From: a phage
Sequence record: PZ445524.1
Length of the DNA: 64,000 nt
Reading direction: 5' to 3' (one strand)
The position numbers and the translations under genes were made by a program. The notes below the pieces were generated by a model, which saw only the letters and a list, made by a program, of their open reading frames with translations, did not search any database and was not told the origin of the DNA. This document shows, one piece after another, positions 19,015 through 39,899 of the stretch; the first letter of the stretch is position 1, and each line of letters opens with the position of its first letter.

Positions 19015-19042
19015 TTTGTGTTCCTCCGTAGTTGATAGTTGT

Positions 19043-19073
19043 ATAGTACCACAGAGGAACAGTCTTGTAAACC
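19043..19073 (-). promoter_or_regulatory. T4-type early promoter with conserved leader
   Basis: minus GTTTAC ... GGTACTATACAACTATCAACTACGGAGGAA. Confidence 0.55.
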
Positions 19074-20459: not shown

Positions 20460-20480
20460 ATCCGTATCAGTTGATAGTTG

Positions 20481-20511
20481 TATAGTACCATAAAGCTTTA
20501 TGCTTGTAAAC
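20481..20511 (-). promoter_or_regulatory. T4-type early promoter with conserved leader
   Basis: same module as at 19043 and 34616. Confidence 0.55.
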
Positions 20512-20561
20512 AGTTTTGTGAAAAATTTTTGAAATAAAAAAGGGAGCCCGAAGGCTCCCTA

Positions 20562-30112: not shown

Positions 30113-30691
30113 TTAGGAATTACGGGCTGCATTAGCAACGGCATACGCGTACTGAATATTAGCGTCTTTAAACTTACCTTTAGAGGTATCTATTTCTGCC
30201 TTAAAGCCGCCTTTAGTCATAACATCGGCAAATTCTTTACGGAAAGCCATTGCATCAAGACCTTTCCATGATGATTTATGCTTAGCAAATTCAAGACCTG
30301 CGAAGTTAACAGCCTTAGCTAATTTATTATCAATAACCCATTTACCGGCTTTAGGCACAAACTTCGGGCCTTTCTGTTTAGAGAACAGTTTTAAATTCCA
30401 GCGGCGAAGGTCTGCATCAGCTTTAACAAATTCTGAGTCTAAGTTACTAGCAACAACATCTTCAATATGAGCAAATTTAAGTCCGTCAACTTCAATATTT
30501 AAATCGGTACGCCAGCGAAGTCCTTCCCATGCGAAGGCTTTAAAGTCGGAAGCCTTTGTAGCTAAGTACCGTTCAATAGGAGCTGTTTTAGGGTCAAAGC
30601 CGTTTCCCGATCGGTAGGTCCACTCATCTTTGTTAATGCCTTTGGCCTTTACTACAGAAGCTTCGGCAATAAATTCTTGATATGTTTTCAT
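30113..30691 (-). CDS. ipIII: internal protein III-like (capsid-targeted)
   Basis: 192 aa; N-terminal capsid targeting sequence MKTYQEFIAEA; size matches T4 IPIII. Confidence 0.75.
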   Translation of the reverse strand: MKTYQEFIAEASVVKAKGINKDEWTYRSGNGFDPKTAPIERYLATKASDFKAFAWEGLRWRTDLNIEVDGLKFAHIEDVVASNLDSEFVKADADLRRWNLKLFSKQKGPKFVPKAGKWVIDNKLAKAVNFAGLEFAKHKSSWKGLDAMAFRKEFADVMTKGGFKAEIDTSKGKFKDANIQYAYAVANAARNS

Positions 30692-30707: not shown

Positions 30708-31025
30708 TTATTCTTTAGGGAAGTTTTTAGAATATGCATCATAAAGCTTATTTCCAATACGGCGGAAAACTCTAGCCGCAAAACGATTTTCTGGGTTTTT
30801 AATCATGATTTGCATCATATAAGTACCCGCGTCAGAAAGAGCTTCTTCATAGTACCCGTTAATTTCTTTAAGAGTCCTACGTTTACCACCAGGACCATCA
30901 ACAGTGATTTTCCATTTACCTGTAGAAGTGCGACTTGGCGGCTCAACTTGTTCAATCCAAATATAACCGCCTTCTACACGTTGTCCTGCAGCAGATTCTG
31001 CAATAAATTCTTGATATGTTTTCAT
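30708..31025 (-). CDS. ipII: internal protein II-like (capsid-targeted)
   Basis: 105 aa; N-terminal MKTYQEFIAES. Confidence 0.7.
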   Translation of the reverse strand: MKTYQEFIAESAAGQRVEGGYIWIEQVEPPSRTSTGKWKITVDGPGGKRRTLKEINGYYEEALSDAGTYMMQIMIKNPENRFAARVFRRIGNKLYDAYSKNFPKE

Positions 31026-34250: not shown

Positions 34251-34319
34251 TTATTTCTCCGTTTTCTGTATTTGTTTTGATAAGTCTATAATAACACCGT
34301 CCTTGGCGTTTGTACACAA

Positions 34320-34595
34320 TTATTTCATATTATTGAAATATTCTTCTGCGATTTCATCGTTATCATGGTAAACTTTAGAAGACAGTTTAACATAACCTTC
34401 AGCAGTGAACATGTTAATCACAACCTTTACAGTATACCACTGACCATCTTCATTACCCATTACTGCGTAAGTTTCAAACATCGGATGGTCAGGACCGATA
34501 ACTTTAATATCATTCACTGTACGACCAAAATCTTCTGAAACACATTTCATAAAGAAGTTGAACAGTTCACCGTAATTATCCATTTTATTCTCCAA
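34320..34595 (-). CDS. hypothetical protein
   Basis: 91 aa; early promoter and SD upstream. Confidence 0.5.
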   Translation of the reverse strand: MENKMDNYGELFNFFMKCVSEDFGRTVNDIKVIGPDHPMFETYAVMGNEDGQWYTVKVVINMFTAEGYVKLSSKVYHDNDEIAEEYFNNMK

Positions 34596-34615
34596 GTTGT
34601 TTTCTGTATCAGTAG

Positions 34616-34646
34616 TTGATAGTTGTATAGTACCATGGAAGAACAG
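34616..34646 (-). promoter_or_regulatory. T4-type early promoter with conserved leader
   Basis: minus GTTTAC ... GGTACTATACAACTATCAACTAC. Confidence 0.55.
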
Positions 34647-34811
34647 GGATGTAAACAGTTTTGTGAAAAATTTTTAGGGAATTCTAGGGCGGGGAGGGGC
34701 AATTAAAAGATAGGATAATATATTATAAAGGGTATAAACTAAATGACGCCTAGAGAGGTCTGGAAAGGCCTAGATACCAAAAAGCCCTATCATTTAGATA
34801 GGGATTTAAAA

Positions 34812-35375
34812 TTATTTACCTAGTTTAGCTATTATAGCTTCGGCAGCAGCTTTTAGCTTAGATGCAGTGTTAATACGATTTTTAATTTCAGTATAAGCAT
34901 CGCCAAGAACATCAAGGCTATCAGAATAAACACTTACACTATTGCGTTCGCTATTTGAAATAGAACCTTTAGTTTTACGATCAAAATCGGTATACACGTC
35001 TTGAAGATCGCGGGCTGCCTTCTTTGCATCATCCAATGCATCAAGAGCTTTATTCAAAGCATTAACATATTTTTTAGTGTCAAACATATTCTTAGAAATT
35101 TTGACAGGTGCGCGTTCAGGAGTAGCTAAGGCAGATTTAGGAACCTGTTTACCAGATGCCAGTTTCTTAGAAATTTTGAAAAATGCTTTATTGAAATTAT
35201 TTTCTTGACTCATCGTAAAAGAACTATTATCGATGTTATACATTTCAATAGCTTTAGCTTTCCACTTAAGAAAATCGCCCCGGTCTTTTGGGTCCAAGTG
35301 GAAGAATACTTTAGTAAGATCTGCTTCAGATGGTAATTTTGCTGCTTCGGTTAAAAATTCTGCATAGGTTTTCAT
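34812..35375 (-). CDS. internal-protein-like protein with capsid targeting sequence
   Basis: 187 aa; N-terminus MKTYAEFLTEA resembles the IP capsid targeting sequence. Confidence 0.55.
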   Translation of the reverse strand: MKTYAEFLTEAAKLPSEADLTKVFFHLDPKDRGDFLKWKAKAIEMYNIDNSSFTMSQENNFNKAFFKISKKLASGKQVPKSALATPERAPVKISKNMFDTKKYVNALNKALDALDDAKKAARDLQDVYTDFDRKTKGSISNSERNSVSVYSDSLDVLGDAYTEIKNRINTASKLKAAAEAIIAKLGK

Positions 35376-35449
35376 TTAAAATCCTTGAAATAATTTATTG
35401 GTTATTAATTATTTATTATTGTAACAGCATTCTCCGAGTGATTCAAACT

Positions 35450-35477
35450 AAAAAGCCCCAACCTTTCGGTCGGGGCT
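35450..35477 (-). terminator. rho-independent terminator ending the tRNA/stable-RNA transcription unit
   Basis: minus AGCCCCGACCGAAAGGUUGGGGCU followed by UUUUU. Confidence 0.7.
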
Positions 35478-35793
35478 AAGCCTTGCGGCAACCTTGTCGG
35501 GGTTCCACCTGCTAAGGCAAGTGTTTGTACGAAACGCCGGGACTTGAACCCGGTTATTGAGTAGTTGACGCTACTCAATATTTTTAAAAGGCCATATCTC
35601 GACCATATCCGAACGTTCCGTCAAAAACGCTACTCGGCTTATGGCAAAGATATTTCCTCGAATCGATAATTCGGTGCGCCGTTTCTGCTGTGATGTAAGG
35701 GGATATTAACAAATCGTAAAGATTTATTAAGACCAGTCCTTACTCAGGGAACATCAGTCCGACGACTTACCGGTAGCGACCCGGTTTCTTGTC
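35478..35793 (-). ncRNA. stable small RNA region (likely two RNAs, T4 species 1/2-like), boundaries not resolved
   Basis: No credible ORF; lies between tRNA-Arg and the terminator; contains tRNA-like T-arm CCGGGTTCAAGTCCCGG with pairing acceptor-like strands CGGAACG / CGTTTCG. Confidence 0.4.
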
Positions 35794-35870
35794 TGGTCGA
35801 GGCAGAAGGATTCTAACCTTCAACCTACGGATTAGAAATCCGTTGCTCTATACAATTGAGCTATGCCCCG
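35794..35870 (-). tRNA. tRNA-Arg (anticodon UCU), CCA encoded
   Basis: Hand-folded cloverleaf: acceptor CGGGGCA/TGCCTCG, D-stem GCTC/GAGC, anticodon stem ACGGA/TCCGT with loop TTTCTAA, T-arm GAAGG/CCTTC. Confidence 0.75.
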
Positions 35871-35873
35871 TAA

Positions 35874-36539
35874 TTAAAATTTCATTTTTCGACCTTTAAA
35901 CCATCCTTCTGGAATTGGGTCAGTTTTCTTAATACGTTTAGAAACTTTTTCATCTAATGAATGAATCCACATCATACCAAATTGGGAATTCTTTTCGCCC
36001 TGTTGATGTTTATTTCTGGCGTGAGATTCTTTCATTTTATTAATAGTTTCAGGAGTATGATGCTTATTTAAAAATCTGCTATTATTTAAAAATTTTTCCC
36101 TGTATTCAGGAGTTGACCACAAGCGTTTAAATACATTTGAACCATGTTTACGATATTTTTCTTGAAGTAAAATATCATTTTTAAAACGTGACTTAAACGA
36201 TTTAGCTCCTTTTAAGCTAGCATCTTTCTTCTGGTTTAGCATCCCAGGAATATTTACATGATCCCATCCACCTTCACCACCAAGTTTTAAATTATACACA
36301 TCTGGTCTATTTAAAAACTCTTCTGTGACAATATTTTTCTCGGCTTCAAGCATAGATTCTTTATCATCAAAATACTCTAATATTTCTTTAGAAAAATTTT
36401 CTATACCATATTTATCTTGGGCTCTTTTTAATAATTTACCAGAACCCATATATCCATCATCTAAATTTTCGGTAGAATGCGCACCAATATAAATTTTATT
36501 ATTAATTTTATTTGTTATTTTATAAGTGTAATGGAACAT
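35874..36539 (-). CDS. segB: GIY-YIG homing endonuclease SegB
   Basis: 221 aa; GIY-YIG motifs KIYIGAHST and YMGSG; embedded in the tRNA cluster as in T4. Confidence 0.85.
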   Translation of the reverse strand: MFHYTYKITNKINNKIYIGAHSTENLDDGYMGSGKLLKRAQDKYGIENFSKEILEYFDDKESMLEAEKNIVTEEFLNRPDVYNLKLGGEGGWDHVNIPGMLNQKKDASLKGAKSFKSRFKNDILLQEKYRKHGSNVFKRLWSTPEYREKFLNNSRFLNKHHTPETINKMKESHARNKHQQGEKNSQFGMMWIHSLDEKVSKRIKKTDPIPEGWFKGRKMKF

Positions 36540-36580
36540 AAATATCTCCTATTTCTAAGAGTATTTATGTTCCCAAAATA

Positions 36581-36652
36581 TGGCCCTGGGTGGAATTGAA
36601 CCACCATCTGGCGATTATGAGTCGCTTGCTTGAACCTTCCAGCTACAGGGCC
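36581..36652 (-). tRNA. tRNA-Ile (anticodon CAU, presumably lysidine-modified), no encoded CCA
   Basis: Hand-folded: acceptor GGCCCTG/CAGGGCC, anticodon loop CTCATAA, T-arm GGTGG-TTCAATT-CCACC. Confidence 0.7.
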
Positions 36653-36653
36653 T

Positions 36654-36729
36654 TGGTGCTGATTGACGGAATCGAACCGCCGACCTTCTCATTACAAGTG
36701 AGTTGCTCTACCTACTGAGCTAAATCAGC
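36654..36729 (-). tRNA. tRNA-Thr (anticodon UGU), CCA encoded
   Basis: Hand-folded: acceptor GCTGATT/AATCAGC, D-arm GCTC/GAGC, anticodon loop CTTGTAA, T-loop TTCGATT. Confidence 0.8.
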
Positions 36730-36731
36730 AA

Positions 36732-36818
36732 CGGAGGCGATAGGATTTGAACCTATGAGTCGCCGGAGCGACTGCCGGTTTTCAAGACCGGTGCATTAAA
36801 CCACTCTGCCACGCCTCC
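36732..36818 (-). tRNA. tRNA-Ser (anticodon UGA), long variable arm, no encoded CCA
   Basis: Hand-folded: acceptor GGAGGCG/CGCCTCC, anticodon stem CCGGT/ACCGG with loop CTTGAAA, variable arm GTCGC-TCCG-GCGAC. Confidence 0.8.
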
Positions 36819-36820
36819 AG

Positions 36821-36894
36821 TCTCCGCGGCAGGATTTGAACCTGCGACATTCTGCTCCCAAAGCAGACGCTCTACCAAACTGAGCTACACGGAG
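36821..36894 (-). tRNA. tRNA-Pro (anticodon UGG), no encoded CCA
   Basis: Hand-folded: acceptor CTCCGTG/CGCGGAG, anticodon stem TCTGC/GCAGA with loop TTTGGGA, T-arm GCAGG-TTCAAAT-CCTGC. Confidence 0.8.
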
Positions 36895-36904
36895 TAAATT
36901 AAAT

Positions 36905-36978
<74 letters not shown>

Positions 36979-36983
36979 AAATT

Positions 36984-37070
36984 TGGTGCGAGAAGTGGGA
37001 CTCGAACCCACAAGGAAATCATTCCGCAGCATTTTAAGTGCTGTGCCTTTACCAATTTGACCATTCTCGC
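36984..37070 (-). tRNA. tRNA-Leu (anticodon UAA), long variable arm, CCA encoded
   Basis: Hand-folded: acceptor GCGAGAA/TTCTCGC, anticodon stem CAGCA/TGCTG with loop CTTAAAA, variable arm GGAA-TGAT-TTCC. Confidence 0.8.
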
Positions 37071-37071
37071 G

Positions 37072-37144
37072 CTGGGAATAAAGGACTCGAACCTTTGCAT
37101 CCTGGAATCAAAATCCAGTGCCTTACCAACTTGGCTAATTCCCA
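37072..37144 (-). tRNA. tRNA-Gln (anticodon UUG), no encoded CCA
   Basis: Hand-folded: acceptor TGGGAAT/ATTCCCA, anticodon stem CTGGA/TCCAG with loop TTTTGAT, T-loop TTCGAGT; 1 nt from tRNA-Leu. Confidence 0.75.
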
Positions 37145-37241
37145 ATTATTAACAAAGGCTCTCTAACAAGAACCCTTGATGATAGAGGGTATTAATCAGT
37201 GCGGTATGAGTTAATAATAACAAATAATTCTTAAAGCATAT

Positions 37242-37529
37242 TTACCATTTATGATGATATGTATTTACGATACATTCAAGACCCAAAGGATTCTTGAAAA
37301 TATCATATTCAAGAGGACCTTTTTCCGTTTCAATAAAGAAATCAAAATTTACTGTATTAAATTTACGGTCTTCCTTTACTAATTTAACTTGAGAAGATGA
37401 ACGGTCAATGTAAACCTTTTCAACTTCAAAACATGTTAAAATTCCATAATCATCAATCAAGGCTTTAGCTGCGTCTTGATCATATTTATATCCATTTTCA
37501 ATGGACGATACTTTCGCATAAAGAATCAT
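37242..37529 (-). CDS. hypothetical protein
   Basis: 95 aa ORF in the ipI-locus neighbourhood. Confidence 0.5.
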   Translation of the reverse strand: MILYAKVSSIENGYKYDQDAAKALIDDYGILTCFEVEKVYIDRSSSQVKLVKEDRKFNTVNFDFFIETEKGPLEYDIFKNPLGLECIVNTYHHKW

Positions 37530-38189: not shown

Positions 38190-38414
38190 TTATTCAACAC
38201 CAGCGGCTTTCAAAAGTTTTTTAAGATTGGCAACACCTTGAGCAGAAAATGTGACCTTGCCACCTTTTTCACTGATAGAACCAACCAATTTAGCAAGTTT
38301 ATCATTAGGAATTTTTTTAAAATCAGCCAATGTTCCATCAAAGGTTTTTGAAACAAAAGGCAGTTCGTCTTCATGTCTTTTAGCTTCTGCAATAAATTCT
38401 TGATATGTTTTCAT
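38190..38414 (-). CDS. internal-protein-like small protein with capsid targeting sequence
   Basis: 74 aa from ATG 38412-38414; N-terminus MKTYQEFIAEA. Confidence 0.65.
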   Translation of the reverse strand: MKTYQEFIAEAKRHEDELPFVSKTFDGTLADFKKIPNDKLAKLVGSISEKGGKVTFSAQGVANLKKLLKAAGVE

Positions 38415-38446
38415 TTTAGTTTCCATTTGGATGTTTTGTTTTGATA

Positions 38447-38481
38447 GGGTAATAATATCACCACCCTATCTAAAAGTAAAC
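38447..38481 (-). promoter_or_regulatory. T4-type early promoter cassette
   Basis: minus GTTTAC ... GATATTATTACCC. Confidence 0.5.
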
Positions 38482-38491
38482 AGTTTATAAA

Positions 38492-38800
38492 CTATTTTAT
38501 TCCGCGTGATGCAATTGTGTTCTGTCGTTTAACACCAGTTTGTTTAAAGTCATGATTGTCGATTTGATCGGTACGAGCAACTCCGAATGATGATTTGATT
38601 TTAGCTTTAGATCCTTTAGTTATAGAAATAAACATCTCGGAAGCCCCTTTCTTAAAGTCCGAGGCGATTACTTCAACGCCGTTCTTAGCAAGTGACTTCA
38701 GAATTGCCTCTGCATACTCATCGTCAAGACTCGTCTGAGTATTAATAACGAATGTCTTTGGCGCAGCCGCTTCATTGATAAATTCTTTAAATGTTTTCAT
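38492..38800 (-). CDS. internal-protein-like protein with capsid targeting sequence
   Basis: 102 aa; N-terminus MKTFKEFINEA. Confidence 0.6.
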   Translation of the reverse strand: MKTFKEFINEAAAPKTFVINTQTSLDDEYAEAILKSLAKNGVEVIASDFKKGASEMFISITKGSKAKIKSSFGVARTDQIDNHDFKQTGVKRQNTIASRGIK

Positions 38801-38825
38801 TTTATTTTCCTAATTAATTTTGATA

Positions 38826-38860
38826 GGGTAATAGTATCACTACTAAAACCACATGTAAAC
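38826..38860 (-). promoter_or_regulatory. T4-type early promoter cassette (direct repeat copy 1)
   Basis: near-identical to the cassette at 39156-39190. Confidence 0.55.
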
Positions 38861-38872
38861 AACTTTGTGAAA

Positions 38873-39130
38873 TTATTTTAAATCTTCTAATCGTTTCTTC
38901 ATCTTAGAACCGTTCTTAGCGATTTCGCCTGCATCAGAGCATAATGCTAAAAGCGCTTTAACTTTAGTTTGGTCTCCTTTAAAAGATGAAGGATCCACAG
39001 CAGCAGCAAGTTCTTTAATACGAGAGAAAAGACGCTCAGCTTCAGCTAAAGCCATTCCAAGCTTTACTTCCATACCGTGGGAAGATTCAGTGATAGTAGT
39101 TTTTGTAGCAAACTCTTTGAAAGTTTTCAT
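38873..39130 (-). CDS. internal-protein-like protein with capsid-targeting-like N-terminus
   Basis: 85 aa; N-terminus MKTFKEFATK; flanked by about 100 bp direct repeats. Confidence 0.55.
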   Translation of the reverse strand: MKTFKEFATKTTITESSHGMEVKLGMALAEAERLFSRIKELAAAVDPSSFKGDQTKVKALLALCSDAGEIAKNGSKMKKRLEDLK

Positions 39131-39155
39131 TTTATTTTCCTAATTAATTTTGATG

Positions 39156-39190
39156 AGGTAATAGTATCACTACCTCATCAGTATGTAAAC
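39156..39190 (-). promoter_or_regulatory. T4-type early promoter cassette (direct repeat copy 2)
   Basis: minus GTTTAC ... GATACTATTACC. Confidence 0.55.
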
Positions 39191-39202
39191 AACTTTGTGA
39201 AA

Positions 39203-39899
<697 letters not shown>

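Follow-up and report, generated by a model that had tools for sequence, protein, structure and literature searches.

We analyzed an open reading frame (ORF) of 187 amino acids, here called ORF187, in a stretch of 64,000 nucleotides of phage DNA (record PZ445524.1), which we refer to in its full length as the window. On the minus strand, ORF187 occupies positions 34812-35375 and opens with an ATG; it begins with MKTYAEFLTEAAKLP and has the N-terminus MKTYAEFLTEA given in the original prediction, which had left out the strand. The window is that of a Tequatrovirus (T4-like) genome, and a 2.6-kb query around ORF187 matched 768 phage records at 90-99% identity, mainly T4-like phages of Escherichia, Shigella, and Yersinia. 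Upon searching with tblastn, we found ORF187 unbroken in 165 phage records, with at least 95% amino acid identity in nearly all of them, while a comparison of the window with RB14, fPS-90, and T4_ev151 yielded synonymous and non-synonymous codon differences at a ratio of ~3:1. Because of these intact copies and the synonymous excess, ORF187 is a real gene, and it is under purifying selection. A Shine-Dalgarno sequence, AAGGA (35382-35386, minus strand), stands 6 nucleotides before the ATG and is conserved in six genomes. Every record labels the product a hypothetical protein (RB14ncORF136c, RB69ORF149c/148c, Shfl2p135), and we found no mention of RB69ORF148c/149c, RB14ncORF136c, or Shfl2p135 in the open-access literature. 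The profile phrog_2280 (PHROGs v4, "unknown function") matched residues 1-181 of ORF187 over its positions 1-178 of 178, at an E value of 1.4e-53.

The first 10 codons of ORF187 (35346-35375, minus strand) encode MKTYAEFLTE, a predicted capsid targeting sequence (CTS) in which Y4 and F7 would serve targeting and L8-T9-E10 would form the gp21 site. According to PMC9026906, the first 10 residues of IPIII are enough for foreign proteins to be taken into T4 heads, and the mutagenesis of Mullaney & Black (1996), as summarized there, assigned targeting mainly to residues 4 and 7 and processing to residues 8 and 10. The protease site is defined as well, as gp21 cleaves after Glu in I/LxE motifs (PMC12991175). 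All four of the mapped CTS determinants (Y4, F7, L8, and E10) are present in ORF187, and LTE10 is the sole [LI]xE site in the entire protein. The predicted mature product thus begins at Ala11 and comprises 177 amino acids, with a mass of 19.6 kDa and an isoelectric point (pI) of 9.5; the corresponding pI values are 9.65 for the ipIII product of the window and 9.60 for a 105-residue CTS protein encoded next to it. Over its first 12 residues, ORF187 matches PST IpIV, an annotated internal head protein, at 10 of 12 positions, and nothing else is common to these two proteins.

ORF187 belongs to a set of exactly six ORFs in the window, each 40 amino acids or longer, that start with MKT[YF]xEF, as established by a regular-expression scan of all six frames, and all six lie on the minus strand. 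With a chance expectation of 0.0007 among 591 ATG-start candidates, this confirms the predicted number of genes with a common N-terminus. The other five are ipIII (30113-30691, 192 amino acids, 98% nucleotide identity to T4 ipIII), the 105-residue CTS protein at the ipII position (30708-31025, phrog_3966), and three CTS cassettes at the ipI locus, of 74 (38190-38414), 102 (38492-38800), and 85 (38873-39130) amino acids, each of which has its own early promoter and falls in a PHROG annotated as internal head or virion protein. The original prediction had named these five as ipII, ipIII, and three cassettes, which is right for ipIII and the cassettes and wrong for ipII: the 105-residue protein is a different CTS protein, and we rejected its identification as T4 ipII upon finding that only the ~30-nucleotide leader-coding start matches T4 ipII/ipIII DNA. 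Its family, phrog_3966, is listed under "unknown function", making it the second CTS protein of the window without an internal-protein annotation. That the repertoire of internal proteins (Ips) exceeds the classical three was likewise proposed and is borne out by the six CTS genes, although such an extension is not novel, as reports since Repoila 1994 have brought the number of Ips to 10 or more (PMC12373910). We also observed that a near-identical module precedes each of the ipI-locus cassettes (38415-39240, minus strand), consisting of an early promoter, GTTGTTTACA-17-GATACTAT, that overlaps a short hairpin with tagtgatactattaccctatca. These modules look like PeSL promoter/stem-loop repeats, which have been proposed as mediators of cassette shuffling (PMC4122927).

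All genes around ORF187 are on the minus strand. In the order of transcription, the region runs from seven tRNAs (37144-36581) through a segB-like gene for a GIY-YIG homing endonuclease (35874-36539), which lies within the tRNA cluster as it does in T4, to a tRNA-Arg (35794-35870), the stable RNAs rnaD (35673-35789, 89% identity to T4 rnaD) and rnaC (35528-35666, 96% identity to T4 rnaC), a terminator, ORF187, another terminator, and finally e.8 (34320-34583), which has its own early promoter (TTTACA-17-TACTAT, 34627-34655). The terminator ahead of ORF187, an intrinsic hairpin AGCCCCGACCGAAAGGTTGGGGCT with a T-run (35454-35477, minus strand), closes the tRNA/rnaD/rnaC unit, and the one behind it, hairpin CCCTATCTAAATGATAGGG followed by CTTTTT (34785-34803, minus strand), lies directly 3' of the stop codon. 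Since all these genes share one strand, ORF187 is transcriptionally downstream of the tRNA cluster; it does lie between e.8 and the stable RNAs, as predicted, but the word "upstream" used for it holds in plus-strand coordinates only. Among the tRNAs, the one that ARAGORN called tRNA-Met (CAU anticodon, 36581-36652, minus strand) corresponds by position to T4 tRNA-Ile. An Rfam search over 34300-37300 returned only tRNAs at or above the gathering score, its weaker matches all overlapped tRNA genes, and rnaC and rnaD had no match.

Within this region, ORF187 sits on an inserted cassette of 659 bp (34788-35446) that is missing from T4, PST, and T6, and the sequence on either side of it is collinear with the spacer between e.8 and rnaC in T4. 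Upon alignment, the 284-bp T4 spacer splits in two, with its positions 1-215 corresponding to window 34584-34787 and its positions 204-284 to window 35447-35527, and an alignment with PST gave identical breakpoints. The ORF187 gene is therefore a 659-bp insertion with a 12-nucleotide junction overlap. We found no gene between e.8 and rnaC in T4, PST, or T6, and a tblastn check revealed no phrog_2280-type member in the T2, T4, and T6 loci. Hence, ORF187 constitutes a dispensable cassette with precise indel boundaries that varies among close relatives: T4, PST, T6, and T2 lack it, whereas 165 records contain it. It brings its own terminator and sits right behind that of the stable-RNA operon. 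In the PeSL cassettes described previously (Arbiol 2010; Comeau 2014), repeated units of early promoter and stem-loop flank a variable gene; the ORF187 cassette has stem-loop terminators at its flanks and carries a late-type promoter element instead of an early one, and the sole early-type promoter at ORF187 is peculiar to the window. Parts of the T4 e.8-rnaC spacer, from its early-promoter region, also match window 19025-19061 and 20469-20534 at 84-89% identity, and these two segments would be regulatory modules that are repeated elsewhere in the genome.

The consensus of T4 late promoters is TATAAATA. ORF187 is preceded by a late-promoter element, AATAAATA (35410-35417, minus strand), which matches this consensus at 7 of 8 positions, lies 34 nucleotides before the ATG, and is the positional equivalent of a canonical TATAAATA in homologues. 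All 14 family loci examined contain exactly one NATAAATA within 120 nucleotides upstream, at a distance of 25-40 nucleotides from the ATG; the element is the canonical TATAAATA in eight of them, and the ORF187 subgroup carries AATAAATA or GATAAATA. As RATAAATA is under-represented in the window (7 sites versus 22.2 ± 4.4 expected), the conserved promoter position is unlikely to have arisen by chance. This shortage suggests that late-promoter sequences close to the consensus are selected against; in the window, the number of canonical TATAAATA sites is at chance level (11 versus 10.6 expected). We found no transcript data for ORF187, and the promoter element would point to late transcription, as a prohead-core protein needs. 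The window additionally contains a sigma-70-like promoter, TTGAAT-17-TACAAT with a TG (extended -10), at 35418-35446 (minus strand), which was created by a 12-bp deletion. We rejected it as a conserved feature, because the deletion occurs in the window only and the promoter is absent from the five relatives compared (RB14, fPS-90, T4_ev151, RB69, and CT01). While it is probably incidental, it might allow for early expression of ORF187 in this particular phage.

The family of ORF187 proved to extend far beyond its close relatives. Single-sequence searches (word-indexed, as well as a scan of 1.84 billion representatives) returned almost only the latter, plus P0013, a 30%-identity homologue from a short metagenomic T4-like contig (L006; Logan SRR28624380), and IMG/VR as well as pattern scans of metagenomes yielded only relatives at 97% identity. 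The broad family surfaced only when P0013 was used as the tblastn query, a bridge that led to 351 records in Karamvirus, Mosigvirus, Dhakavirus, Kagamiyamavirus, and Jiaodavirus as well as in Klebsiella and Erwinia phages. ORF187 has relatives of 17-30% identity in at least six other Tevenvirinae genera, where the annotation is again hypothetical (phrog_2280). Identity to ORF187 outside its own subgroup was 17-28% in an alignment of 20 sequences. Seven of the eight homologue loci that we examined lie right after the tRNA genes, or at the equivalent position, ahead of e.8/e.6-like genes; the context of the eighth, from Dhakavirus CLBP2, is unreadable in a record that comes without annotation.

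The leader is retained throughout this divergence. All homologues start with aromatic-x-[ED]-[FI]-[LI]-x-E, with the Glu at position 9 or 10, and all 18 non-redundant members have an aromatic residue at the equivalent of position 4 and Phe or Ile at position 7. Conservation in the family alignment reaches 90% or more at F7, L8, and E10 (94% at L8 and E10), and in many members another [LIVM]xE site follows 5-9 residues beyond the first. The leader is kept at the protein level even though the codons differ. The L006 homologue, which adjoins tRNA genes on their downstream side, starts with MITFNEFLNES, and the next gene on this contig (2092-2526, plus strand), which encodes an unrelated 144-residue protein with an ART-PolyVal ADP-ribosyltransferase domain, starts with MITFKQFLNES. 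As two unrelated neighbours thus have the leader MITF[NK][EQ]FLNES in common, the leader tracks the resident phage and not the protein, which would fit a signal for head loading rather than an inherited part of the fold. The ART-PolyVal protein is itself a candidate for a head-packaged, injected ADP-ribosyltransferase distinct from Alt.

The post-rnaC site can hold a second gene of this kind. In fPS-90 and fD1, it contains g136c and g140, respectively (157 amino acids, starting with MKSY[AT]QFLNEA), flanked on both sides by copies of one 31-nucleotide terminator hairpin that equals the hairpin on the rnaC side, and in fPS-90 the ORF187 gene and g136c stand in tandem. Profiles of the ORF187 family and the g136c group matched over their full length in hhalign (probability 96.5%, E 1e-9), a result that became convincing only with the broader alignment, since the first such comparison was marginal (probability 83%). 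Given this match and their common membership in phrog_2280, which takes in both P0013 and fPS-90 g136c, the cassettes that occupy the site are distant paralogues of each other. We found the g136c type in 512 records and the ORF187 type in 165. We rejected an equation of fPS-90 g136c with PST IpIV upon comparing the two, and likewise dismissed RB69ORF150c and ORF151c, the neighbours of the site in RB69 and CT01, as CTS proteins. The reference sequence of RB69, a Mosigvirus (NC_004928, 73428-73990), carries the Tequatrovirus allele of ORF187 at 97% amino acid identity, with a frameshift that divides it between ORF149c and ORF148c, and in the Mosigvirus-type phage JQD51 this site holds an orthologue of 22% identity. 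These findings suggest a recent transfer of the RB69 allele between genera, followed by decay or by a sequencing error.

Using AlphaFold2 with the 20-sequence alignment, we obtained a model of ORF187 with a mean pLDDT of 79. It comprises a leader helix (the leader being residues 1-10), a small helical N-terminal domain (residues ~17-73), a disordered Pro/Lys/Ala linker (~76-94), and a C-terminal long antiparallel helical hairpin (~100-186, pLDDT ~90). In the allele of Shigella phage CT01 (L007, 1501-1989), the inter-domain linker has been lost through an in-frame deletion of ~25 residues, indicating that the linker is dispensable and that the two helical domains are separate modules. Foldseek gave no match in the PDB at E ≤0.001, and the matches in BFVD were family members only, including a 22%-identity protein of fHe-Yen9-01. 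PHROG matches of ORF187 to internal-virion-protein families spanned the leader only. Neither in sequence nor in fold did we find similarity to the characterized Type IV inhibitors (Ip1, Ip2, Ip3, and Bas37_0260); this dissimilarity is uninformative, however, because the characterized Ips are mutually unrelated and share the leader only.

We suggest that ORF187 is probably a packaged and processed internal head protein of the T4 type. The mapped leader determinants, the retention of the leader across the family, the late-type element, and the basic mature protein all support the view, put forward in the original prediction, of an internal-protein-like CTS gene outside the usual ip loci. In the course of infection, ORF187 would be transcribed late from the NATAAATA element, and the pre-protein would be carried to the core of the assembling prohead by its 10-residue N-terminal CTS through Y4 and F7. 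There, gp21 would cut after Glu10 of L8-T9-E10, so that the 177-residue, 19.6-kDa protein of pI 9.5, with the predicted N-terminal peptide AAKLPSEADLTK starting at Ala11, would be kept in the head with the DNA. Upon infection of the next host, the mature protein would be ejected ahead of phage gene expression and would most likely neutralize a first-response host defence, by analogy a variant of a Type IV (modification-dependent) restriction enzyme. The reality of the gene, its leader determinants, the anatomy of the cassette, the synteny, and the conservation of leader and late-promoter element throughout the family are shown; packaging, gp21 cleavage, injection, and the anti-defence role are all inferred, and our confidence declines along this chain: we give an anti-defence function roughly even chances, and regard a Type IV restriction enzyme as a tentative guess at the target, somewhat short of that. 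The analogy draws on several precedents. Ip1, Ip2, and Ip3 each inhibit one distinct GmrSD variant, without cross-protection (PMC12373910); IPIII is required for infection of ECOR17 and is also effective when supplied without its CTS; and the CTS protein Bas37_0260 inhibits McrBC (bioRxiv 10.1101/2025.11.20.689424). All five CTS internal proteins studied so far disarm modification-dependent restriction enzymes. ORF187 fits the picture of an arms-race gene in its extreme divergence between genera, its tandem paralogues, its presence or absence in near-identical phages, and the Tequatrovirus allele carried by RB69.

Among the known systems, T4 IPIII and IPII (CTS MKTYQEFIAE) are close counterparts, sharing with ORF187 the 10-residue leader with Y4, F7, [IL]8, and E10, a basic mature product (pI about 9.5-9.65), and a non-essential gene that varies among relatives; IPIII is also similar in size (192 versus 187 amino acids). 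They differ from it in having no similarity past residue 12 and in their locus between denV and e, in contrast to the rnaC-e.8 spacer, and ORF187 is set apart by its predicted all-alpha, two-domain fold. Ip2 and Ip3, furthermore, have established targets, namely the GmrSD variants found in ECOR21 and ECOR17 (PMC12373910). The Ips encoded at the ipI locus (Ip5-Ip12 of Repoila 1994, PST IpIV-VI, and Bas37_0260) resemble ORF187 as mutually unrelated, CTS-bearing proteins encoded on presence/absence cassettes with regulatory repeats at their flanks; the leader of PST IpIV, MKTYQEFITEAA, is nearly identical to that of ORF187, and Bas37_0260 illustrates that such CTS proteins can target McrBC. The ipI cassettes of the window, however, have early promoters with a short hairpin, whereas the ORF187 family has a late-type NATAAATA after a terminator, and ORF187 belongs to a one-locus family conserved across genera, whereas the ipI-locus Ips assort at the strain level. 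The g136c group (fPS-90 g136c, fD1 Gp140, and RB32ORF132c, 157 amino acids) shares with ORF187 the insertion site after the rnaC terminator and the arrangement of leader, N-terminal domain, Pro/Ala/Lys (P/A/K) linker, and C-terminal helices. Its late promoter is canonical, and it is particle-associated in fD1, in a non-stringent preparation, yet a pairwise BLAST with ORF187 finds the leader only. Finally, T4 Alt and the ADP-ribosyltransferases among the polyvalent proteins represent head-packaged, gp21-processed, injected effectors, and the L006 homologue of ORF187 adjoins a CTS-bearing ART-PolyVal gene; ORF187 differs from them in that Pfam and PADLOC detected no enzymatic domain.

Several observations weigh against the proposal of a packaged anti-defence protein. 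We found neither virion proteomics nor N-terminal sequencing nor genetics of ORF187 in the open-access literature, and the fPS-90 paper contains no proteomics. The paralogue Gp140 was flagged as particle-associated when fD1 virions were analyzed by LC-MS/MS, in a non-stringent preparation that also listed 113-137 of 277 phage proteins, including e.5 and e.6, and 672 host proteins; it hence lends weak support to packaging of ORF187. The late element of the window, at 7 of 8 matches, is not canonical. Searches for a function returned little: Pfam matches did not rise above helical-bundle noise (Cytochrome b562 at E 0.006, under the cut-off), PADLOC had no match to ORF187, sequence searches of the PDB found nothing meaningful (best choline kinase at E 0.29, no other at E ≤1), and the modeled fold is a generic helical hairpin that provides no functional clue. 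Two further points concern the role of the protein rather than its packaging. The family locus is fixed across many genera, unlike the hypervariable ip cassettes, and the role could be more general than strain-specific anti-restriction; and in some homologues, the Pro/Ala/Lys linker resembles a DNA-binding tail.

These last points lead to the main rival explanation, namely that ORF187 is packaged but serves a structural or DNA-associated role, by condensing or neutralizing DNA or by aiding ejection through protection or escort of the leading DNA end. The pI of 9.5 of the mature protein, the long, histone-H1-like linker of the Dhakavirus, Mosigvirus, and Karamvirus homologues, and the persistence of one locus and one architecture across many genera, unlike strain-specific ip cassettes, all fit such a role. 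T2, T4, and T6 nevertheless do without the family, so that neither head filling nor ejection requires it, ORF187 itself has a short linker and the CT01 allele has lost it in frame, and the extreme divergence, tandem duplication, and transfer between genera are typical of arms-race genes, so we consider this role unlikely. We attach a marginally smaller likelihood to the idea that phrog_2280 represents a pan-Tevenvirinae family of injected effectors, older and wider than the T4 Ips, with a target other than Type IV restriction. In its design, a CTS would be followed by a variable N-terminal domain, a flexible P/A/K linker, and a conserved helical hairpin, with tandem paralogues as specificity variants; the target could be, for example, a defence triggered by the arriving DNA end or by ejection, or the family might itself take part in DNA delivery.

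The two remaining explanations dispense with packaging altogether. ORF187 could be a cytoplasmic late accessory protein, its CTS-like start being a recombination scar from the conserved 5' ends of ip cassettes. The CTS-coding DNA is indeed the only part common to unrelated ip genes, which fits recombination there, and we found no direct virion evidence for ORF187. Yet a mere scar is hard to reconcile with a leader that is kept at the protein level with different codons, in lineages down to 17-25% identity, that co-varies with the leader type of the resident phage, and whose retained residues are precisely the functionally mapped positions 4, 7, 8, and 10. Moreover, as 10 residues of IPIII suffice for loading (PMC9026906), a carrier of this leader that is made late would be expected to be packaged, and we therefore regard a cytoplasmic protein as improbable. 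Even less can be said for a non-functional ORF187, be it an ORF that exists by chance or a pseudogene in decay, for which the frameshift-split RB69 reference copy might speak. The Shine-Dalgarno sequence, promoter-like element, and terminator of its own, together with full-length homologues in many genera, stand against it, and the intact copies in 165 records and the purifying selection seen in the substitutions effectively refute it, leaving it barely conceivable. Overall, a packaged and processed internal head protein thus remains our preferred reading of ORF187.

The mechanism that we propose for ORF187, with CTS-dependent loading, gp21 cleavage, and injection, is classical. Relative to the open-access literature and database annotation, it appears to be new that ORF187 and its family are CTS proteins, that the site behind the tRNAs and stable RNAs is a third ip locus, and that the family occurs in many Tevenvirinae genera while missing from T2, T4, and T6. 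Presumably, it was overlooked because these model phages lack it. Injected internal proteins act ahead of phage gene expression, and, as those studied disarm modification-dependent restriction, they are direct determinants of host range. At the post-tRNA site, hundreds of sequenced T4-like phages of the type used in therapy encode one or two proteins of the family under the label "hypothetical", and these phages span at least seven genera. Its recognition would improve their annotation and would provide candidates for anti-defence screens and for the host-range differences between near-identical phages. The ORF187 family thereby extends a known mechanism of the T4-like phages and does not reveal a new one.

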